Shown here one piece after another: positions 556 through 14,719 of a DNA stretch of 64,000 nt (its first letter is position 1; every line of letters starts with the position of its first letter). Source of the DNA: Mustelus asterias (lineage: Eukaryota); contig NC_135828.1 in the NCBI RefSeq assembly GCF_964213995.1, positions 30,628,001-30,692,000 of the forward strand. The letters run 5' to 3'. A program made the translations under genes and the position numbers. Under the pieces are notes generated by a model that worked only from the letters and a program-made list of their open reading frames with translations, made no database searches and had not been told where the DNA came from.

Positions 556-1922
556 TGTTACGGCACAGAGGTTAATCCCCTTTACCTCGCGTCATAATTA
601 AGGTACAGTTCGACTGGAATGCTGTTCGAATATTGCAAGGAACATTCATTACCAAAATAGTAATAACGGATTTTTGTCATTCTCAAATCAATTATATAAC
701 CAGGTCTGATAGAACATAGAACATAGAACAGTACAGCACAGAACAGGCCCTTCGGCCCACGATGTTGTGCCGAGCTTTATCTGAAACCAAGATCAAGCTA
801 CCCCACTCCCTGTCATCCTGGTGTGCTCTATGTGCCTATCCAATAACCGCTTAAATGTTCATAAAATGTCTGACTCCACTATCACTGCAGGCAGTCCATT
901 CCACACCGCAACCAAGTAAAGAACCTACCTCTGATATCCTTCCTATATCTCCCACCACGAACCCTATAGTTATGCCCCCTTGTAATAGCTCCATCCACCC
1001 GAGGAAATAGTCTTTGAACGTTCACTCTCTCTATCCCCTTCATCATTTTATAAACCTCTATTAAGTCTCCCCTCAGCCTCCTCCGCTCCAGAGAGAACAG
1101 CCCTAGCTCCCTCAACCTTTCCCCATAAGACCTACCCTCCAAACCAGGCAGCATCCTGGTAAATCTCCTCTGCACTCTTTCCAGCGCTTCCACATCCTTC
1201 TTATAGTGAGGTGACCAGAACTGCACACAATATTCCAAATGTGGTCTCACCAAGGCCCTGTACAGTTGGTCCTGATAGCATGCGGAAGTTTTGGAATTCT
1301 TTGGTAGTTGTCCGCATTCTATTTGAGCTGTCAGATTTGGGACCTTTTGCTGGGTAGCGAGTGATTTATCTTAAGACTGGCAGAGTTAGGGACTGACTGC
1401 TCCAGTTGATCTAACTGCCCTTAAATGTATTTAGCTGCTTCAGGTGATCGAGCTCTGCTTATGGTTGAACTCCTGGCTCAACACTGGTGGAACTGAACTC
1501 AAGGCAGTTAATTAATAATCATTTTTATAATCATTTTGACCTATCAATATTCCTGTATACTCAGATTTGCCTGATGTTCACAACAACAGCAAATTCAAAC
1601 CTCACAGGTTAGCTTTCGCTGAGCGTTTTCTTTAAACTGACAGGCTGTTAGCTGATTGCCATATTTAAATTCATCGGCAAACAAAATGCAAAAATCTACA
1701 GAGCCGGTTAACAAGGCAACCGTTATGCTTGGTGCTCGCATCAAATGCTGCAACTTAGAGTCTGTGTGTACTCTGCATTTTAAACATCTCAGCATTGAAT
1801 AATTTCAGCTTCTGAAGGCATTGACACACCAGCTTTTAAAGGGAACACGCACTGCTTTCCCCGACAGTGTTTGACATTATTTACAGACACTCTGTACGTC
1901 TATTAAACTCAACTTGACAACA
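556..1922 (-). repeat. 3' LTR of the Gypsy element (interrupted by a CR1 fragment)
   Basis: On the minus strand it begins TGTTG at 1922 right after the PPT and ends TAACA at 556. 556-1505 aligns by eye with 8847-9392, apart from a ~150-bp indel and the CR1 insert. Confidence 0.85.
713..1271 (-). mobile_element. CR1/HER1 LINE 3' fragment inserted in the LTR
   Basis: ORF 882-1253 is the CR1 RT C-terminus (RPHLEYCVQFWSP...ERVQRRFTRMLPG). (TTCTATG)n-type tail at 713-730. ctgatag is repeated at 706-712 and 1272-1278 (probable TSD). Confidence 0.9.
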
Positions 1923-1935
1923 CCTCCCCCCTTCC
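1923..1935 (-). other. Polypurine tract (plus-strand primer) of the LTR element
   Basis: Minus strand reads GGAAGGGGGGAGG immediately followed by the TG of the LTR. Confidence 0.8.
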
Positions 1936-2038
1936 GGATAAAAATGTGCCATCAACATGAGACAATGGCTTCCTTGTTTTTCTTCCGTGGTCTGAGACAT
2001 TTTGAAATACTTTTCAAGTCTGTCCAAGAGATCTAGTT

Positions 2039-2632
2039 TTAGTTCTTTCAGACTCTTCCTCCTTAAACAACGTCTTAATAATCTCTTCCTTTTTGGCGTG
2101 CCAACGTTCTTCATGGCGCCTATGAACCTCCTTCCTCCTGTGAGTTTCAGCCTGGACAGCCAGTCGCTTCTTGCGAGCCTTGTCTACATTTTAGTTTGTG
2201 AATGTGCTCCACCAAGATACGTTTATTCTTGAAGACAGTACCCTTGCCCTTCAGATACATGTTGTGATACATGTGGCGATCGATCTACTTGGGCCCAACG
2301 TATCTGCGAAGTAGACGCCTCAGAGTTTTCATTCTCCTCATCAAGGCCACTTTCTTCTGCATGCGAGCATTAGCTCTATCCATTCGCTTATTGAAGCCCA
2401 TGTTCCATTCCTTCCTGTGCGTAAGGGTGTTCTTCCTGCATCAAACATGCGAGGGTACAGTCACAGGCTTGCGGATAATTTAACCATCTTTCATTAATTT
2501 TCTGATTTGTTGACGGGAATTGGCATTGGCCATCTGATCCAGCCATACCTTCGCCTTGCCACAGCGCAAAACGTCGGAGGCCAGCCTCTTCTGAAGCCCG
2601 AGCCTAATCATTGCCGCTTTTCGACGGAAAGG
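2039..2632 (-). pseudogene. RPL19: Processed (intronless) ribosomal protein L19 (eL19) pseudogene
   Basis: Manual translation from ATG 2611: [25 protein letters not shown]...[24 protein letters not shown]...NARMQKKV...RRLLRRY...[38 protein letters not shown]...[15 protein letters not shown], which matches vertebrate RPL19 end to end. It has three in-frame stops, a frameshift and no introns. A TOP-like CCTTTCC lies at 2632-2626. Confidence 0.95.
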
Positions 2633-2698
2633 CAATTTTCAGTACCCACGAACTAAGTCCAACTTCATGATGTAAGTATCCTGTCCTCCTTTTTCCCA
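2630..2698 (-). pseudogene. Gypsy RT remnant continuing past the PLE insertion
   Basis: Reads WEKGGQDTYIMKLDLVRGY*KLP, the expected continuation (xxKLDLxxGYWQxP) of DAYPIPKLEDCWEKG at ~5852-5900. Confidence 0.8.
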
Positions 2699-2757
2699 GT
2701 AAGAAGTTTACCAACACCAGGTTAAAGTCCAACAGGTTTATTTGGTAGCAAAAGCCA

Positions 2758-2794
2758 CACAAGCTTTCGGAGCTGCAAGCCCCTTCTTCAGGTG
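2758..2794 (-). ncRNA. Minimal hammerhead ribozyme motif in PLE tail
   Basis: Reverse complement of 5715-5751: cac-CTGAAGA-stem II-GAAA-gctt-gtg. Confidence 0.7.
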
Positions 2795-5714
2795 AGTGGG
2801 AATTCTGTTCACAAACAGAGCATATAAAGACATAAACTCAATGTACATGAATAATGGTTGGAATGCGAATACTTACAACTAATCAAGTCTTTAAGAAACA
2901 AAACAACATGAGTGGAGAGAGCATCAAGACAGGCTAAAAAGATGTGTATTGTCTCCAGACAAGACAGCCAGTGAAACTCTATGGGGGTTACAAATAGTGG
3001 GACATGAACCCAATATCCCGGTTGAGGCCGTCCTCGTGTGTGCGGAACTTGGCTATCAGTTTCTGCTCAGCGACTCTGCGCCATCGTGTGTCGCAAAGGC
3101 CACCTTGGAGAACGCTTACCCGAATATCAGAGGCCGAATGCCCGTGACCGCTGAAGTGCTCCCCAACAGGAAGAGAACAGTCTTGCCTGGTGATTGCCGA
3201 GCGGTGTTCATTCATCCGTTGTCGCAGCATCTGCATAGTTTCCCCAATGTACCATGCCTCGGGACATCCTTTCTTGCAGCGTATCAGGTAGACAACGTTG
3301 GCCGAGTTGCAAGAGTATGTACCGTGTACCTGGTGGATGGTATTCTCACGTGAGATGATGGCATCTGTGTCGATGATCCGGCACGTCTTGCAGAGGTTGC
3401 TGTGGCAGGGTTGTGTGGTGTCATAGTCACTGTTCTCCTGAAGGCTGGGTAGTTTGCTGCGGACAATGGTCTGTTTGAGGTTGTGCGGTTGTTTGAAGGC
3501 AAGAAGTGGGGGTGTGGGGATGGCCTTGGCGAGATGTTCGTCTTCATCAATGACATGTTGAAGGTTCCGGAGGAGATGCCGTAGCTTCTCCGCTCCGGGG
3601 AAGTACTGGACAACAAAGGGCACTCTGTCCACTGTGTCCCGGGTTTGTCTTCTGAGGAGGTCGGTGCGGTTTCTCGCTGTGGCGCGTTGTAACTGTTGAT
3701 CAATGAGTCGAGCGCCATATCCTGTTCTTATGAGGGCATCTTTCAGCGTCTGGAGGTGTCTGTTGCGATCCTTCTCATCTGAGGAGATCCTGTGTATACG
3801 GAGGGCTTGTCCGTAGGGGATGGCTTCTTTAACGTGTTTAGGGTGGAAGCTGGAGAAGTGGAGCATCGTGAGGTTATCCGTGGGCTTGCGGTACAGTGAG
3901 GTGCTGACCTGACCGTCCTTAATGGAGATGCGTGTGTCCAAGAAGGCAACCGATTCCGTAGAGTAGTCTATGGTGAGTCTGATGGTGGGATGGAACTTGT
4001 TGATGTCATCATAGAGTTGTTTCAGTGATTGTTCACCATGAGTCCAAAGGAAGAAAATTTCATCGATGTACCTAGTGTATAGCATCGGTTGAAGGTCCCG
4101 TGCTGTGAAGAAGTCTTATTCGAACCTGTGCATGAAGATGTTGGCATATTGAGGTGCGAATCTGGTCCCCATGGCTGTTCCGTGTGTCTGGATGAGGAAC
4201 TGGTTGTTGAAGGTGAAGATATTGTGGTCTAGGATGAAGCGGATGAGATGTAAAATTGCATCTGGAAACTGGCAGTTGTTGGCGCTGAGCACTGAGGCCG
4301 TTGCAGCAATGCCATCGTCATGGGGGATGCTGGTGTAGAGTGCCAAGACATCCATTGTGACGAGTAGTGCTCCTGGTTCAACTGCTCCATGTGTGCCGCG
4401 TTTCTGTAGGAAGTCTGTCGTGTCGCGACAAAAGCTGGGGGTTCTTTGTACAATGGGTTGCAGGATGCCCTCGACATAGCCGGTGAGGTTCTCGCACAGG
4501 GTCCCATTGCCCGATATGATGGGACGGCCGGGTGTGTTTGCCTTGTGTATCTTCGGGAGGCAGTAGAGATCTCCAACGCGGGGAGTACGTGGGATGAGAG
4601 CACGGAGGGTGTTCTGAAGGTCCGGATCAAAGGTCTTGATCGGAGTGTTGAGTTGACGGGTGTGTTCTTTGGTCGGATCTGCAGGTAACTGTCTGTAGTG
4701 TTCCTCATTGTTTAGTTGTCAGTAAACTTCTTTGCAGTAATCCGTTCTGTTCAGTATGACGATGGCCCCTCCTTTGTCTGCTGGTTTGATAACAATGTTG
4801 CAGTTGGTCTTGAGAGCGTGGATGGCGTTACGTTGTGCTTTGGTGATGTTCGGGGCTGTCTTGTGAGTGCGGCTGATGAATTTGGTGTTGACGCACCTCC
4901 TGACAGCTTGGGCATACATGGAGCGGAGAAGCTATGGCATCTCCTCCGGAGCCTTCAACATGTCATTCATGAAGACGAACATCTCGCCAAGGCCATCCCC
5001 ACACCCCCACTTCTTGCCTTCAAACAACCGCACAACCTCAAACAGACCATTGTCCGCAGCAAACTACCCAGCCTTCAGGAGAACAGTGACCATGACACCG
5101 CACAACCCTGCCACAGCAACCTCTGCAAGACGTGCCAGATGATCGACACAGATGCCATCATCTCACGTTTGAACACCAGGTACACGGTACATACTCTTGC
5201 AACTCGGCCAACGTTGTCTACATGATACGCTGCAAGAAAGGATGTCCCGAGGCATGGTACATTGGGGAAACTATGCAGACGCTGCGACAATGGATGAATG
5301 AACACCGCTCGACAATCACCAGGCAAGACTGTTCTCTTCCTGTTGGGGAGCACTTCAGCGGTCACGGGCATTCGGCCTCTGATATTCGGGTAAGCGTTCT
5401 CCAAGGCGGCCTTCGCGACACACGACGGCGCAGAGTCGCTGAGCAGAAACTGATAGCCAAGTTCCGCACACACAAGGACGGCCTCAACTGGGATATTGGG
5501 TTCATGTCTCACTATTTGTAACCCCCACAGAGTTTCACTGGCTGTCTTGTCTGGAGACAATACACATCTTTTTAGCCTGTCTTGATGCTCTCTCCACTCA
5601 TGTTGTTTTGTTTCTTAAAGACTTGATTCGCTGTAAGTATTCGCATTCCAACCATTATTCATGTAAATTGAGTTTGTGTCTTTATATGCTCTGTTTGTGA
5701 ACAGAATTCCCACT

Positions 5715-5751
5715 CACCTGAAGAAGGGGCTTGCAGCTCCGAAAGCTTGTG
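5715..5751 (+). ncRNA. Minimal hammerhead ribozyme motif in PLE tail
   Basis: cac CTGAAGA aggggc-ttgca-gctcc GAAA gctt gtg: CUGANGA and GAAA core, stem II, palindromic AAGCTT stem III, cac/gtg stem I, as known for PLE minimal HHRs. Confidence 0.72.
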
Positions 5752-5851
5752 TGGCTTTTGCTACCAAATAAACCTTTTGGAAGTTAACCTGGTGTTGTTA
5801 AACTTCTTACTGTGTTTACCCCAGTCCAACGCCGGCATCTCCACATCATGA

Positions 5852-8709
5852 CTCCTTTTTCCCAACAATCCTCCAACTTTGGAATTGGATATGCGTCGAA
5901 TTTAGTTTCCGTGTTGACCTTTGGATAACTTACACAGAACCGTTGAACACGATCAGGTTTGGCAAACAACACGATCAGCGAACTTCACTCGCTTTGACTA
6001 TTATATCGCCTTCTAACATCACTTCCACTTCCTTTTGACCCTGCAGTGCTTTGTGGGGGTTCAGCCAATATGGAATTTGTTTTATCGGAACATCACTCCC
6101 TCTGTCAACATCATGTACTTCGCCGTTAGTCTTGCCTATGTTATTTTTACATAGGTCCTCATCGCACAAGGTTTTTTTTCAATTCAGTGCACTGACCTTA
6201 GGACACATAGCTCAATACCCTACTCCTGTCTTTATGGACTTATTCGTTATTTAATTTATCTTCAGGTGCATCAATATCCTCATCATCGGGATGGGATTCG
6301 TCACTCAGTGCCAGTAGGATGGATTCCTCACTGTGTGGCTCTACTATTAAAATCCTTTATCAGCTCATCTGTCTGTTGTAACTCCTTTATTTATTTTTCA
6401 GAACTAAACATTTCTGCCTGATCTACCGAGGACTTTCCCCTACCACCTCATCAAACCGAGTGTCAGCCAACTGGACCTCAAAGCGCTCCTCTTTCTCTTT
6501 TGCTCTCCCTTCATTTTTTAACTTATGGCTGTGCGATCTTGTTACCTCACAGTCCGGAAAGATTTCCGGGTATTTTTCGTTTAACTCCTCAGTTCCCTTG
6601 TTCTCTTTTGGCTTTTCGACTATCATGGGCACCACGCCCACTTGTGCTCCAGCTGTATAATTTCCATCAATAAACTATATCCGTGGAATAACCAGATTTC
6701 CCATCACTCCCACTAACACTTCCCCAGACTGGATTGGACTCTGGAGTCTTATTATGCACAGGTGAATACGACTCCTTTCTCCATTTATTCCGCAGATTTT
6801 CTCGGGCAGTATTTCAGAAGGAATGCAAATATCCGCATCTTTTACGATTAGAGAAAGACTAGCTCCCGCATCTCTCAACAGTTTAACGTATTTACCTACT
6901 CCCCCTGTTATACCGAGTCAACCTTTTCCACACAGGTGAAGTATTTCAAAAGATCGGAATCTACGACATCCTCCATCCTGTGCCAAGTCTGTGCACTCTC
7001 CTTCAGCTCCTCGACTTCGCTCGATATTTCTTTCACTCCTTTAACTAATCCCACTGGTTTAGCCTCTTTTACCACACCTTTTTTCCCCAGTGCCTTTCTT
7101 AAGCCTTTGTGTGTCCCACCTTAACTCACTGAAAACACATGAGGACTTCCGCCTCTTTCCTCCCTTCTTGGGTATCTTTTTTAACAGGGGATAAACAGTT
7201 CCCAGTGTTATCTACTTTTGCTTTTTCATTGAAGGAATTCCCTCTTTCCCAATTGCTTCCCTCACAGACTGAAATACCTGCCGGAAACCAAATTGCAATT
7301 TATTTACTATTGCGTGTTCATGCGCCATCTCTACAGCTTTTCTCGTTGTCTTAACTTTCTATTCCTTAACATTAATTCTTATCACTTCTGAAAGTGAGTT
7401 TTTAAATTCCACCAGCAATATAATATATCTCAGGGCCTCATAACACTTTTTCAAATTTAATATTTTCAACCCTCTCTCCAGGTTGTTCTGGTTAATTCTT
7501 TCAAACTCGATATATGCCTGACCTGGTTCCTTCCTCACATTCCTGAACCTTTGTCTATATGCTTTTTGTACCAATTCGTAAGCACTCAAAACAGCCTTCT
7601 TTACTTCGTCATACTTTCCTGACACCTCCTCTGACAACACACGGTGGCACAGTGGTTAGCACTGCTACCTCACAGCGCCAAGGACCCCGGTTCGATTCCA
7701 GTCTCGGGTGACTGTGTGGAGTCTGCACGTTCTCCCCGTGTCTGCGTGGGATTCCTCCAGGTGCTCCGGTTTCCTCCCACAGTCCAAAGATGTGCGGTTT
7801 AGGTTGATTGACCATGCTAAATTGACACTAGTGCCAGGGGGATTAGCTAGGGTAAATACATGGGGTTACGGGAATAGGGCCTGGGTGGGATTGTGGTCAG
7901 TACAGACATGATGGGCCGAATGGCATCCTTCTGTACTGTAGGGATTCTATGATTCTATGAATGGTGCAAGCATCTCAGTCGCCCTGTCGACCAACTTGCT
8001 CGGAATTAACATTACCCACACATCCTCTGGCCATTCCATCTGTGTGGCCAATTTCTCAAAGGATATGGAAAATATCTTCTGCGTCAAATTGTGTTAATGT
8101 CTGGACATATTTGTATATATCCTTACCAGGCGGTTGGCTGTGCTGAGTCTACTCACTATTACTTCTATCTGGTACTCCTTCTGCTGTAATTTGAAACCTT
8201 TTTGTTCCATTTCCAACTTCCTCTTTTCTAACTGAAGCAAACTTTCTCTTTCCCTTTCTGCTCCCTCTTTTTTCCATTCCTCTGTTAGTGCCTTCCCCTC
8301 TCTTTCCTTTTCTTTCTTCCGTCTCTTTTTCACTTTCTTCTACTCCTGCCTTCCTCTCTTTCCTTCCATTCTGCTGGTGCCTTCATCTTTCTTCCTTTTT
8401 TGTTTCTTTTGTCTCTTTTCCCCTTCTCTTCTCTTTATGACTGCAGCCTTTTAATTTCTTTCGCTAACTCCAAGTTATTTTTCATATATTTCTTTTCCAA
8501 CGTCACTGCACTTGACTGTCTTTCTGCTAGACCTCGATGCTTGATGAACTCCGTTCAAATTCAGCTTTCTTATTTGCCCTGGTTGAACTCAATTTTCGTC
8601 TGTTGGCTAATTTTACAAGTGTCAGCTTGCTTTGTTTCTCTAAAGTCTCTTGGCAAATTTGGAAAGCATCTGCGACCTGCAGAACCTCTCCAATAATGAA
8701 AAGATCCAT
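5852..8709 (-). pseudogene. Fragmented Gmr1-like gag-pol: coiled-coil/SCAN-like gag, aspartic protease, RT N-terminus; integrase missing
   Basis: 7359-7640 YDEVKKAVLSAYELVQKAYRQRFR (SCAN-related gag). 6675-6878 RDAGASLSLI (protease D-T/S-G-like). 5975-6169 PIKQIPYWLNP. 5852-5972 KPDRVQRFCVSYPKVN..TKFDAYPIP. Confidence 0.82.
7638..7960 (+). mobile_element. HE1-type tRNA-derived SINE inserted in gag
   Basis: A/B boxes (tggcacagtgg, ggttcgattcc), V-SINE core (ccggtttcctcccacagtccaaagatgtg), LINE-like tail (gattctat)n. Confidence 0.88.
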
Positions 8710-8823
8710 GTCCTCGCATAGGTTTATTTTAAAGATTTAAGAGTGTTTAGATCCCTCACTTAGCGTCGATTTAAAGATTTAAGACAGTTCAGATCCAGGA
8801 CACGAGGATCTTTGACTGTTCAA

Positions 8824-8843
8824 ATCTCGGACATGAGCCCCCA
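8824..8843 (-). other. Primer-binding site, tRNA-Pro type
   Basis: TGGGGGCTCATGTCCGAGAT, 3 nt after the 5' LTR end (AACA); resembles TGGGGGCTCGTCCGGGAT, the complement of the tRNA-Pro 3' end. Confidence 0.8.
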
Positions 8844-8846
8844 TTC

Positions 8847-9392
8847 TGTTATGATACAGAGGTTAATCCCCTTTACCTCGCGTCACAATCTGCTGGAAAT
8901 ATTTGGGAATGTCTTAGCTGTTCTCAATTAACCTATAGAGGTTCATTAATCTCAAGGCCTGACACTCTCTTTAAGCGAATAATTAACAAGGTATTTATTC
9001 AAATGACCAGGAATTTTAAGTGAAGAGATAACATATTAAGTAAGGTATGGTTCGACTGGAAAGCTGTCCGAATAATGCAAGGAACATTCATTCCCAAAAT
9101 AGTAATAATGGAATTTTTGTCGCTCTCAAAGAAATTTTATAACCAGGTCTCATAGCGTTAGGAAGTTTTGGAGTTTATTGGCAGCTGTCCGCTTCCTATC
9201 AGGGCTGTCTGATTTGGGACTTTTCGCTGGGTAGCGGGCATTTTATCTTAAGGCCTATCTGAAGTTGGCAGAGTTAAGAACCAACTGCTCCAGTTGATCG
9301 AAGTGCCCTTTACTGCCTTTAAATGTTTTAGGTGATCGGGCCCTGCTGCTTTTTGAACTCCTGGCTCAATCTTGGAGGAACCAAACTCGAGG
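8847..9392 (-). repeat. 5' LTR of the Gypsy element, truncated by a PLE
   Basis: Homologous to 556-1505; similarity stops where PLE RT sequence (ctctcatcccacgtactccc) starts. Confidence 0.83.
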
Positions 9393-10570
9393 CTCTCATC
9401 CCACGTACTCCCTGCGTTGGAGAACTCTACTGCGTCCCGAAGATACACAAGGCCAAGACACCCCGCCGTCCCATCGTATCAGGCAATAGGACCCTATGTG
9501 AGAACCTCTCTGGCTACATCGAGGGCATCCTGAAACCCATTGTACAAAGAACCACCAGCTTCTGTCGCGACACTACGGGCTTCCTATAGAAACTCAGCAC
9601 ACATGGAGCAGTTGAACCAGGAGCGCTCCTCCTCACAGTGGATGTCTTGGCACTCTACCCCAGCACACCGACGATAACGCATTGCAGCAACTGCCTCAGT
9701 ACTCAACGCCAACAACTGCCAAACTCCAGATGCAATTCCACAACTAATCCGCTTCATCCTGGACCTTCAACAACCAGTTCTTCATCCAGACACACGGAAC
9801 AGCCATGGGGACTAATTTCGCACGTCAGTATGCCAGCATCTTCATACACAGGTTCGAACAAGACCTCTTCACCGCACAGGACCTTCAACCGACGCTATAC
9901 ACGAGACACATCGATAACATTTTCTTCCTTTGGACTCCTGGCGAACAATCACTGAAACAACTATATGATGACATCAACAAGTTCCATCCCACCATCAGAC
10001 TCACCATGGGCTACTCTCCGGAATCGGTTGTATTCTTGGACAAACGCATCTCCATCAAGGACGGCCACCTCAGCACTTCACTGTACTGCAAGCCCACGGA
10101 TAACCTCACGATGCTCCACTTCTCCAGTTTCCACCCGAAACACGCTAAGGAAGCCACCCCCTACGTACAAGCCCTCCGTATACACAGGATTGGCTCAGAT
10201 GAGGAGGATTGCAACAGATACCTACAGACACTGAAATACGCCCTCAGAAGAACAGGATATGGTGCGCGACACATCGATCGACAGTTCCGACGTGCCACAG
10301 CGAAAACCCGCACCGACCTCCTCAGAAGACAAACCTGGGACACGGCGGACAGAGTATCCTCCACTGTCCAGGATTTTCCCAGAGCGGAGAAGCAATGACA
10401 TCTTCTCCCAAGCCTTCAACATGTCATCGATGAAGACAAGCATCTCGCCAAGGCCATCCCCACACCCCCACTTCCGGCCTTCAAACAACCGCACAACTTC
10501 AAACAGACCATTGTCCGCAGCAAACTATGCAGCCTTCAGGAGTGACCACGACACTACACAATCCTGCCAC

Positions 10571-13500
10571 ACAACAAAGAACAATACAGCACAGGAACAG
10601 GCCCTTCGGCCCTCCAAGCCCGCGCCGCTCCCCGGTCCAGGATTGAATCCTGAATCCAGGATCGCCGCCCAATTTTCCAGCCTATCTAGATCCTAGTATC
10701 CTATCCACCGAGCTGTCCCTCACAGCTACGATGCTTTGTTCATCACAACCTATTAACTCACCCCCACCCCCCCATTCCAGACCATGTGATCTCCAGGGAG
10801 AGGCGAAAACCCAGAGTGAAAACCCCAGGACCAATATGGGGGAAAGAAATCTGGGAAATTCCTCTCCGACCCCCTGTGGCGATCGAAACGAGTCCAGGAG
10901 ATCACACTGGCCCTGATCAGAAAATGCTTCCCAACCCTATTCATTTCCACTTCTGCTTTACGAACACCATCTGAGTTCCCTGCCCCCGAGACAGGTTCCC
11001 AACTTTCCGCAGTCTCGCTCTGTACTGGCACCAGCAAGATGATCATAGAATGAAGCCTTGAAACGAAAAACAAAGAACAATTAGCCCGCGCCGCTCCCTG
11101 GTCCAAACTAGACCACTCTTTTGTATCCCTCCATTCCCACTCCGTTCATATAGCTGTCTAGATAAGCCTTAAACGTTCCCAGTGTGTCCGCCTCCACCAC
11201 CTTGCCCGGCAACACATTCCAGGCCCCCACGACCCTCTGTGTAAAATATGTCCTTCTGATATCTGTGTTAAACCTCCCCCCTTCACCTTGAACCTATGAC
11301 CCCTCGTGAACGTCACCACCGACCCGGGGAAAAGCTTCCCACCGTTCACCCTATCTATGCCTTTCATAATTTTATACACCTCTATTAAGTCTCCCCTCAT
11401 CCTCCGTCTTTCCAAGGAGAACAACCCCAGTTTCCCCAATCTCTCCTCATAACCAAGCCCCTCCATACCAGGCAACATCCTGGTAAACCTCCTCTGTACT
11501 CTCTCTAAAGCCTCCACGGCCTTCTGGTAGTGTGGCGACCAGAACTGGACGCAGTATTCCAAATGCGGCCGAACCAACGTTCTATACATCTGCAACATCA
11601 GACCCCAACTTTTATACTCTATGCCCCGTCCTATAAAGGCAAGCATGCCATATGCCTTCTTCACCACATTCTCCTCCTGGGACGTCACCTTCAAAGATCT
11701 GTGGACTTGCACACCCAGGTCCCTCTGCGTCTCTACACCCTTTATGGTTCTTCCATTTATCGTGTAGCTCCTCCCTACATTATTCCCACCAAAATGCATC
11801 ACTTCGCATTTATCAGGATTGAACTCCATCTGCCATTTCTTTGCCCAAATTTCCAGCCTATCTATATCCTTCTGTAGCCTCTGACAATGTTCCTCACTAT
11901 CTGCAAGTCCTGCCAGTTTTGTGTCGTCCGCAAACTTACTGATCACCCCAGTTACTCCTTCTTCCAGATCATTTATATAAATCACAAACAGCAGAGGTCT
12001 CAATACAGAGCCCTGCGGAACACCACTAGTCACAGGCCTCCAGCCGGAAAAAGACCCTTCCACTACCACCCTCTGTCTTCTATGACCAAGCCAGTTCTCC
12101 ACCCATCTAGCCACCTCCCCCTTTATCCCATGAGATCCAACCTTTTTCACTAGCCTACCATGAGGGACTTTGTCAAACGCTTTACTAAAGTCCATATAGA
12201 CAACATCCACGGCCCTTCCTTCGTCAACCATTCTGGTCACTTCTTCAAAAAACACCACCAGGTTAGTGAGGCATGACTTCCCTCTCACAAAACCATGCTG
12301 ACTATCGTTAATGAGTTTATTCCTTTCTAAATGCGCATACATCCTATCTCTAAGAATCTTCTCCAACAACTTCCCCACCACGGACGTCAAGCTCACCGGC
12401 CTATAATTAACCGGGTTATCCTTCCTACCCTTCTTAAATAACGGGACCACATTAGCTATCCTCCAATCCTCTGGGACCTCACCTGCGTCCAGTGACGAGA
12501 CAAATATTTGCGTCAGAGGCCCAACGATTTCACCTCTCGTCTCCCTGAGCAGCCTTGGATACATTCCATCAGGCCCTGGGGATTTGTCAGTCTTTATATT
12601 CTCTAACAAACCTAACACTTCCTCCTTTGTAATGGAGATTTTCTCCAACGGTTCAACACTCCCCTCAGAGACACTCCCAGTCAACACATCCCTCTCCTTT
12701 GTGAATACCGACGCAAAGTATTCATTTAGGATCTCCCCTACTTCTTTGGGCGCCAAGCATAAGTCCCCACTTTTGTCCCTGAGAGGTCCAATTTTTTCCC
12801 TAACAACCCTTTTGTTCCTAACGTATGAATAAAATGCCTTGGGATTCTCCTTAATCCTGTCTGCCAAGAACATTTCGTGACCCCTTTTTGCTCTTCTAAT
12901 TCCCCATTTGAGTACTTTCCTACTTTCTTTGTACTCCTCCAGAGCTCCCTCCGTTTTTAGCTGCTTGGACCTAACATACGCCTCTCTTTTCTTTTTGACC
13001 AGTCCCTCAATTTCCCTGGTTATCCACTGTTCTCTAATCCTACCCTTCCTATCCTTCTTTTTTACAGGGACATGCTTGTCCTGTAGCCCCAACAACTGTT
13101 CCTTAAAAGACTGCCACATACCAGATGTGGATTTACCCTCAAACAGCCTCTCCCAATCAAGAGCTGCCAATTTCTGCCTGATCCCACTAAAGTTAGCCTT
13201 CCCCCAATCCAACACCTTACCCTTCTTGGGACACCACTCATCCTTTTCCATCACTATCCTAAAGCTAACAGAATTGTGGTCACTATTTGCCACATGTTCC
13301 CCTACCAAATCTTTGAAGACCTGACCGGGCTCATTCCCCAGTACCAGGTCCAGTATAGCCCCCTCTCTAGTCGGGCTGTCTACATATTGTTCCAACGAAC
13401 CCTCCTGTACACATTTTACAAATTCCTCCCCATCCAGAGTCCCTGCCCTCAGCGATTTCCAGTCTATACCAGGGAAATTGAAGTCTCCCACTACAACAAC

Positions 13501-14719
13501 CCTATTTTTCCTGCACCTATCCAGTATCTCCTGACTTATCCATTCTTCCACTTCCCTTGGGCTGTTGGGGGGCCTGTAGTACACCCCAACATAGTGACTG
13601 CGCCTTTCCTGTTTCTAAGCTCCACCCAGAGTGACTCGCTACACGACCCCTCTGAATTGTCCTCCCTCTGCACCGCTGTAATATGCTCTCCAACTAATAC
13701 CGCTACTCCCCCACCTCTTTTGGCCCCTCCTCTGTCTCGCCTAAAACACTTGTACCCTGGAATATTCAGCTGCCAGTCCTGTCCCTCTTTCAACCAAGTC
13801 TCTGTCACCGCAACCACATCCAAATTCCTCGTGCACATTAAGGCCCCAAGTTCGTCTGTCTTACCTGCTACGCTCCTTTCATTGAAGTATAAGCATTCCA
13901 GACCTCCAGGCCCAGTGAGGTCGTCCTCCCCCAGAGTGCTCTTCTTCTTTGCCAGCCTTGTCCCAGCCCCAAGTTCGTCCCCAGCCTCCACACTTGTAGA
14001 CCTAATATTTTGATCCCCACCCCCCTGCCATACTAGTTTAAAGCCCCCGAACTGCACTAGCAAAGCTCCCAGCCAGGATGTTTGTGCCCTTCCAACTTAG
14101 TTGTGACCCCTCCCTCTTGTACAGGTGCCATCCTCTCCTGAAAACTTCCCATTGATCTATGAAAATGAAGCCCTCCCTCCTGGACCAGTCCTTTAGCCAG
14201 GCATTCATTTGTACCAACTCCCTATTCTTAGCCTCACTGGCACGAGGCATTGGGAGCAGCCCAGAGATGGCCACCCTAGTGACCCTACTTTTTAACCTAT
14301 TTCCCAACTCCCTGAATTGCTCTCTTAGGATCCCCCTACTCTTCCTATCTACGTCATTTCCACCAATGTGTATAATGACATCCGTTTCTTTATCTTCCCC
14401 TTTTAATATGCCTCCTATCCGCTCGGAGACATCCGTGACCCCAGCACCAGGTAGGCAGACTACCATCCTGGAGTCCCGTTCGCACCCACAGAATCGCCTG
14501 TCTGTGCCTCTAACTGATGCATCCCCCACCACTATCGCTCTCCTAACCCCTCTCTTCCCTTTCCGGGCCACAGAGCCTGACTGTGTGCCAGTGACCTGGT
14601 CACTGTGTCTTACCACTGGAGAGGCACACTCCTCCACACTATCCAAAACAATATACCTGTTTTGGAGTGGGACAACCACAGATGACCCCTCTTCTAACTG
14701 TTCACTCCCCTCCCCTCTT
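10571..14719 (-). mobile_element. Near full-length CR1 LINE (partial ORF1 esterase; frameshifted APE-RT ORF2)
   Basis: 14038-14679 SGNH-esterase ORF1 (IVVGDASVRG). 13536-14063 plus 11158-13584 APE (VTETW, GDFN, SDH) and RT (KFADD). (TGTTCTT)n-type tail at 10571. Confidence 0.93.

Follow-up and report, generated by a model that had tools for sequence, protein, structure and literature searches.

Retroposition of cellular mRNAs by LTR retrotransposons has been described across animals, with multi-gene chimeras, re-mobilisation of the products and a recurrent A-rich switch site in BLASTOPIA (Tan et al., 2016; PMC5131818). The Drosophila copies reported there cover only part of the transcript (a median of 26%), are truncated at the 3' end and lack poly(A), and two have more than one insertion site. 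Maize Bs1, as presented in the same source, is an LTR element that holds pieces of three cellular genes, was re-mobilised and has common switch points; it is given as present in 1-5 copies, with one cargo out of frame and a reported functional hybrid gene (PMC5131818). Mouse IAP I-delta-1 is a non-autonomous LTR element with an in-frame internal deletion and no host cargo (PMC6466679), and its gag-pol fusion is reported to act in cis on retrotransposition (PMC6466679; PMC10924933). Placement of the integrase upstream of RT is the order described for Gmr1 elements (PMC8220671), and Gmr elements are reported with a single gag-pol ORF (PMC11117352).

The locus analysed here lies in a window of 64,000 nucleotides, the whole stretch of Mustelus asterias DNA that was examined, and very probably represents a dead copy of a multicopy Gypsy chimera, in which RPL19 was likely captured by template switching and which was likely spread by helpers. 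It shares with the cases of Tan et al. an mRNA copy that replaces part of an internal ORF, microsimilarity at the switch points, retention of both LTRs, multi-gene chimeras, further retroposition and an A-rich return site; it differs in that RPL19 is copied in full, between its 5' end and its poly(A) site, in that one A-tract receives the ends of two mRNAs, and in its 18 old loci with nested subfamilies (PMC5131818). In contrast to Bs1, the present family has a neutrally evolving cargo and dead copies, and stages intermediate in the capture are preserved as subfamilies. The in-frame rearrangement of IAP I-delta-1 has its counterpart here in five multi-locus junctions, although the cis effect of that element is for this family an analogy only. 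As in the Gmr1 clade, integrase precedes RT in the non-chimeric relatives and gag may run into pol, whereas the chimeras lack RNaseH and most of both RT and integrase; the likeness to the clade is one of domain order (PMC8220671; PMC11117352). The literature searched holds no report of a family bearing RPL19, NSA2 and DRC7; the supplements of Tan et al. may list comparable full-length or fish cases. The mechanism is thus already known (Tan et al., 2016; maize Bs1), and the family is unusual in its completeness: full-length cargo, preservation of donor and intermediate stages, and a possible frame bias.

A first-pass annotation of the window had noticed the RPL19 copy and read it as a host mRNA transduced into a chimeric LTR element. 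The observation itself is confirmed and the interpretation supported, with template switching suggested by the anatomy of the junctions. Three points had escaped it: the 3' end is the poly(A) site of the mRNA, RT and RPL19 are fused in frame, and NSA2 and DRC7 were later captured by a subfamily.

Table 1. Parts of the chimeric element in the window, in window coordinates, from its 3' LTR to its 5' LTR.
Feature	Positions	Strand	Remarks
3' LTR, TG…CA	556..1922	-	LINE fragment inserted at ~709-1268
Conserved pre-PPT segment and PPT	1923..1971	-	PPT at 1935-1923
A-rich tract	1972..1987	-	mRNA poly(A) end meets the element's A-tract
Copy of spliced RPL19 mRNA	1988..2631	-	20-nt 5'UTR; disrupted CDS (ATG 2611-2609, stop 2041-2039); 3'UTR to the polyadenylation site
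CTTT	2628..2631	-	common to the Pro-Leu codons of the donor RT and the first 4 bases of the RPL19 mRNA model
Final RT codons before the switch, with second TSD copy (2698-2686)	2632..2698	-	81-91% to non-chimeric relatives
Later Penelope-like insertion	2699..5851	.	3.15 kb; inverted terminal arms of 639 nt, 97% complementary; 13-bp TSD
Linker and N-terminal part of RT	5852..6320	-	ends in first TSD copy (5864-5852)
Junction of integrase deletion (type I)	6320..6380	-	deletion of ~1.18 kb
Decayed gag and presumed protease region	6380..8730	-	73-77% to L036 and L039
SINE-like insertion in gag/protease region	~7640-7960		
PBS-like site just inside 5' LTR	8824..8843	-	from sequence; same position in other copies
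5' LTR remnant, inner 550 nt	8847..9393	-	79% to the L036 LTR over 552 nt; remaining part not found in the window

The order LTR-PBS-gag-PR-RT proposed for the element (Table 1) holds in the window, but the family has an integrase upstream of RT that was lost here through the separate deletion. The PBS-like site presumably resembles the 3' end of tRNA-Pro, the Penelope-like class of the insertion is presumed from ORF motifs, and the protease is assigned from a motif, with no Pfam match. The 13-bp duplication that had been described around the Penelope-like insertion is present on both of its sides. A second Penelope-like insertion (9392-10542) severed the outer 5' LTR, and the element's own TSD is unreadable because that outer part is missing. 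The two LTRs are 19.5% divergent (K2P 0.195), a figure based on only 388 compared nucleotides. They are unlikely to stem from independent insertions, since in a natural copy, L036 (C23), the two LTRs enclose an internal region of the same structure. The window copy of the element is dead. Beyond it, the window contains an 818-aa open LINE-like RT frame (11158-13614, minus strand), presumably CR1-like.

The host RPL19 gene has six exons (C11:102.81-102.83 Mb). The window copy crosses all five exon junctions and covers 641 of the 662 columns of the spliced mRNA model (K2P 0.183); it is disrupted by stops and frameshifts. The RT frame, …KLDLVRGY*KLP, passes into this copy (2631-1988) without a spacer and the whole intronless CDS follows, just as had been read after removal of the Penelope-like insertion. 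The reconstruction is matched by L036, which lacks that insertion and has RT and cargo contiguous between its two LTRs (90% identical over 902 nt); an intronless RPL19 copy is there bracketed on both sides by a single LTR element, as is characteristic of an LTR-mediated retrocopy. The copy occupies the place of the remaining RT and RNaseH, as had been proposed: compared with L039 and other relatives, ~945 nt comprising the 3' half of RT and RNaseH are absent from the chimera.

Both ends of the cargo appear to coincide with ends of the mRNA. At the 5' end the switch falls on CTTT, the four bases with which the pyrimidine tract of host exon 1 opens; a longer shared string, CCT(TT) at 2632-2628, had been suggested, of which CTTT (2631-2628) is truly common, the preceding base in the host being T. 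The cargo thus starts where host exon 1 starts, at the same tract at which an independent retrocopy, L058, begins. The TOP/TCT motif is a mark of cap sites, and on the strength of this motif and of L058 CTTT is likely the cap site of RPL19. At the other end, the cargo includes a 51-nt 3'UTR up to the very base where poly(A) takes over in retrocopies L055 and L058. About 100 bp had been placed between RPL19 and the PPT and 3' LTR; that order stands, but about half of this length is RPL19 3'UTR reaching to the polyadenylation site, followed by the A-rich tract. The 3'UTR extends to this site and then meets the A-rich tract, and on these grounds the poly(A) end of the RPL19 mRNA appears to have been captured. 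The statement that poly(A), AATAAA and TSD are absent is literally true of poly(A) in the decayed window copy, where the cargo end merges with the A-tract of the element, and the cargo has no TSD; however, AATAAA is retained in copy L050, and the poly(A) end of the mRNA was evidently the switch point. The cargo therefore seems to be a whole spliced mRNA, likely from cap site to polyadenylation site, replacing the 3' half of RT and RNaseH.

A LINE could instead have made an RPL19 retrocopy within an LTR element; the RT and RNaseH next to it would have been deleted at the time of insertion or later, and the element so damaged would then have been mobilised. In favour of this, a copy that is full length and ends in poly(A) can be the work of a LINE. 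LINEs that look active are present in the genome, as are three RPL19 retrocopies of independent origin, two of which have a clear poly(A), and the A-tract of the element could have served as a target. Against this sequence of events, the cargo has no TSD, and RT does not resume colinearly beyond it, as would be seen around a processed pseudogene with poly(A) and TSD. Moreover, the lost segment stops exactly at the first base of the mRNA, at the common CTTT. Together with the structure of the second and third cargos (see below), this makes the LINE explanation quite unlikely, and capture by template switching is preferred.

The first-pass annotation had called for a search of the genome with the junctions and predicted a mobilised chimeric, non-autonomous element. 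In the 3.68 Gb searched, the RT-RPL19 junction occurs in 24 of 29 RPL19-bearing stretches, and, with duplicates collapsed, 18 independent loci on 13 contigs carry it, with unrelated 3' flanks and TSDs of 4-5 bp. Two further copies (L044 and L060) have lost the junction yet fall inside the family clade; the other three stretches (L055, L058 and L062) are RPL19 retrocopies outside the family, and the poly(A) ends of L055 and L058 mark the host polyadenylation site. The chimeras form one clade (99% UFBoot), which is star-like, with short stems and terminal branches of ~0.04-0.15. Among eight chimeric loci examined, four have perfect TSDs (three of 4 bp, one of 4-5 bp), L061 has one mismatch, L052 two, and two loci are not scorable; different loci carry different TSDs.

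Copies might also have multiplied as DNA, by segmental duplication rather than retrotransposition, and for some of them this is true. L034, on C73, is ~98% identical to the window over >18 kb including flanks; the region (G000:C73:7.098-7.118 Mb, L034 and L035) duplicates the window start with a few different insertions and is a haplotig, a sex-linked homologue or a segmental duplicate. A cluster of six copies at G000:C16:88.57-89.11 Mb (L053, L063-L067), each with a chimeric element, is 92-99% identical over 6-10 kb. L034 (as duplicate of the window) and L063-L067 (of L053) were collapsed for the locus count and dropped from column counts and tree, three of them being kept in the tree only. 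After collapsing, 18 loci are left, their 3' flanks are unrelated (0 of 36 pairs match among nine loci) and the tree is star-like; for loci with distinct TSDs DNA duplication is refuted, and as a general account it is scarcely credible. Non-autonomous LTR families are recognised by dispersed insertions that agree in internal structure and have TSDs of their own. The RT-RPL19 chimera was thus re-mobilised as a multicopy family, since its copies form one clade and four have 4-5 bp TSDs.

LTR pairs in nine chimeric loci differ by K2P 0.044-0.278. The proposed comparison of this divergence with that between retrocopy and parent was made, but LTR divergence does not track cargo-host distance (0.115-0.19), and for this reason LTR-pair dating was dropped as a clock and no age is given. 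L050 (C20:13.88-13.89 Mb) combines an LTR pair 28% divergent with a perfect 4-bp TSD. L061 (6940-8760; C1:197.93 Mb) is a hybrid in which RT leads into the initial ~90 nt of RPL19, then into a SINE-like piece and the RT motif again, which continues into RT/RNaseH; its LTRs are 25% divergent, and it is possibly a recombinant of a chimera and a donor copy. The LTR matches that were sampled are all solo (type II, 20 of 20 stretches at 19 loci; type I, 18 of 18); the first-look LTR candidate numbers, 1140 and 2471, are not copy numbers. One solo type-II LTR (L147, L148; C2:134.97-134.98 Mb) is repeated 10.7 kb apart with identical flanks, representing a tandem duplication or an assembly repeat.

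The donor family can be recognised in relatives without cargo. At the switch codon all ten non-chimeric relatives continue in RT (one has an internal deletion), and from there the remainder of RT and RNaseH, the A-tract, the pre-PPT segment, the PPT and the LTR follow. Pfam matches in L039 occur in the order Integrase_H2C2, Integrase_p58_C, RVT_1 and RT_RNaseH, the integrase matches being below the curated cut-off, with weak matches to SCAN and a zinc knuckle; L068 has rve upstream of RT, above cut-off. This is the PR-INT-RT-RH order of the Gmr1 clade, and the element is accordingly classed, by its domain matches, as a Gypsy LTR retrotransposon that appears Gmr1-like by domain order. In L070 the zinc-knuckle frame extends towards the protease region; all copies are decayed. 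Matches to Endotoxin_N and MbeD fell below cut-off and were taken as chance, and a protein search gave no named relatives of gag, which is weak evidence. Loss of integrase is separate from cargo capture and came about through three or more distinct deletions affecting separate lineages, of which that of type I measures ~1.18 kb. Across 50 loci with the pre-PPT motif, the last 16 nt ahead of it contain a median of 11 A. Five of these 50 loci are non-chimeric relatives with a type-I-like LTR, and another five have a type-II LTR 3' of the motif, all of them cargo-bearing. Among 40 scored candidates, none is a helper with a subfamily-II LTR or a closer RT. Screening for further cargo gave no new one among 50 of 60 pre-PPT matches (seven were RPL19 or NSA2 types, and six had no upstream match to the part library) and none among the 30 of 41 RT matches examined. 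Six loci (L112, L113, L116, L122, L126 and L132) have the pre-PPT motif with another, common upstream segment and a different LTR, and probably belong to a sister family with a longer 3' region. A tandem array at L196:3176-3781 (C463) repeats a ~30-nt unit from the RT/RNaseH region of a donor-type copy.

A derived clade carries sequence from two additional genes. This NSA2-type clade is nested in the family (100% UFBoot), and the capture order, RPL19 before NSA2 and DRC7, would follow from that nesting. Its copies lose the end of RPL19 at column 567, have ~590 nt of other sequence and then reach the same A-tract. The added sequence comprises two spliced NSA2 exons (E 5e-33), two spliced DRC7 exons (E 4e-14; Pfam MORN_DRC7 2e-21) and the NSA2 3'UTR, DRC7 thus lying inside the NSA2 piece. 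The NSA2 3'UTR ends 14 nt past AATAAA, at a point where the genomic NSA2 gene continues T-rich; the NSA2 cargo, too, evidently ends at a poly(A) site, on the same element A-tract as RPL19. Some or all of the NSA2/DRC7 sequence is found at 11 independent loci, and all 14 non-host DRC7 matches are element loci. The switch points of the subfamily share GGAAG (RPL19-NSA2), four of six nucleotides (NSA2-DRC7, imperfect) and GATGCAA, so that the microhomologies across the switch points are 4, 5, 4-of-6 and 7 nt, in addition to the A-tract/poly(A) match at the 3' end. A LINE origin is hard to reconcile with these features, as NSA2 ends on the same A-tract and is joined at a 5-nt microhomology with the RPL19 end lost, and as the internal DRC7 exons are bounded by microhomologies and have no poly(A).

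The segment from integrase C-terminus to RT 5' part in the NSA2-type clade differs from its relatives mostly synonymously (pN/pS 0.17), a pattern suggesting that the original segment was likely exchanged for that of a more distant autonomous lineage; no donor lineage was found among the 40 scored candidates. A fragment at G000:C9:47132152-47132607 is 87% identical to the subfamily-II integrase C-terminal segment and is possibly another copy or a helper trace. Three loci, L082 (C2:55.84 Mb), L083 and L084, are NSA2/DRC7-end fragments with no RPL19 upstream. In the mouse, Drc7 is reported as testis-enriched (PMC6994161); by analogy, the DRC7 cargo suggests the male germ line as the tissue of capture.

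Junctions at poly(A) ends are familiar from retroviral and Ty1 transduction. In the mechanism proposed here, minus-strand synthesis past the PPT would copy the A-tract of the element, and the nascent T-rich end would anneal to an RPL19 mRNA packaged alongside, at its poly(A) tail. On reaching the 5' end of that mRNA, reverse transcriptase would be forced back to the element RNA, at CTTT within RT. The resulting chimera, retaining LTRs, PBS and PPT, could then be mobilised in trans. In the derived lineage, a jump at the same A-tract to NSA2 mRNA would have been followed by re-entry into the RPL19 cargo at GGAAG, and two spliced DRC7 exons would have been acquired within the NSA2 piece. Counting against this account, the 4-nt microhomology at the 5' end is short, that between NSA2 and DRC7 is imperfect, and the TSDs are imperfect or not scorable in four of eight loci.

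The cargo has not been conserved as a protein. Its lineage-II changes are 13 nonsynonymous to 3 synonymous, against a neutral ratio of 3.5; those on the family stem are 3:1, and private changes have a pN/pS of 0.94. The RPL19 cargo evolved neutrally. The cargo might nevertheless have been kept for a function exerted by the fusion, as protein or as RNA, such as tethering of the element RNA to ribosomes or the nucleolus through an RPL19 or NSA2 moiety; two of the three cargos are 60S-related, all are sense and in frame, and type-I-only changes are 5 nonsynonymous to 6 synonymous, although these numbers are small. The neutral ratios in lineage II and on the stem, the occurrence of the NSA2/DRC7 end without RPL19 at L082, and the expectation that abundant mRNAs become cargo by mass action render such a function unlikely.

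The frame of the junctions follows a different pattern. In 13 of 16 scorable copies the RT frame continues across the 20-nt 5'UTR into that of RPL19, and the junctions RPL19-NSA2 (6/7 copies), NSA2-DRC7 (9/10) and those of the integrase deletions (type I, 3/4; type II, 6/9) are also mostly in frame; the junction from DRC7 to the 3'UTR, at an A-run, is in frame in only three of seven. These counts come from the anchor test, with the second J7 row (L054) left out as mis-assigned. Five junctions, each common to at least three loci, all keep the frame (P 0.004 at a chance of one third each, 0.019 at 0.45, both post hoc and on five events). In addition, 12 copies share a 6-nt deletion in the cargo, and two more integrase deletions, each in a single copy, are both in frame. 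Taken with the neutral cargo, these features hint that what was selected is an RNA that can be translated, not a ribosomal protein, and a role of translation in cis would explain an open frame without conservation of the protein. By analogy with IAP I-delta-1, rearrangements that keep the frame open may have been favoured through an aid of translation of the element RNA to its mobilisation in cis, a proposition for which we hold the chances to be even.

Alternatively, the capture holds and the in-frame junctions reflect chance together with a codon-phase bias of the microhomologies, with no selection on translation; the probability of this lies a little short of one half. Only five multi-locus events are available, and the null may reach 0.45-0.5 for each: microhomology gives 0.28-0.45 for an in-frame junction, and among the CTTT sites of the relative, 8 of 16 would give an in-frame junction in any case. 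Four group-specific 1-nt indels, each in 3-5 copies, may also count against a maintained frame, and bovine D-type ERVs are reported to mobilise well without intact ORFs (PMC10924933). Of the private indels, 87 of 349 are in frame. Chance would have to account for five of five junctions in frame as well as for the 6-nt deletion and the two single-copy integrase deletions. A stop is never the commonest codon in any scored backbone column, an observation confounded by inheritance from autonomous ancestors; the cargo-only stop test was not significant (P 0.29). A pooled test for absence of stops among shared changes (P 0.001) was discarded, since part of the change in the backbone was inherited from autonomous lineages; its single 'stop' reflects single-site classing and is never a commonest codon.

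Combining these strands into a broader picture is a tentative step, with the balance somewhat against it: the A-tract by the PPT might act as a built-in oligo(dT) hook for germ-line mRNAs, only chimeras with an open frame from gag to PPT might spread, and the element might have been a serial, frame-preserving exon shuffler (Gag-PR-RT'-RPL19-NSA2-DRC7). Hundreds of solo LTRs may stem from the three-gene subfamily, so that it may have outnumbered its helper.

A recent vertebrate survey ties retrocopy numbers to non-LTR elements (bioRxiv 10.64898/2026.06.26.734816). In this genome an LTR element is the origin of most RPL19 pseudogenes (26 of the 29 stretches examined) and of every one of the DRC7-like copies found. 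The family documents, step by step, how an LTR retrotransposon of a vertebrate transduced mRNAs, with donor family, one-gene chimera and three-gene chimera in one genome and with mappable switch points. If the frame bias is true, a model in which translation in cis promotes non-autonomous mobilisation would be testable through counts of junction frames across genomes.
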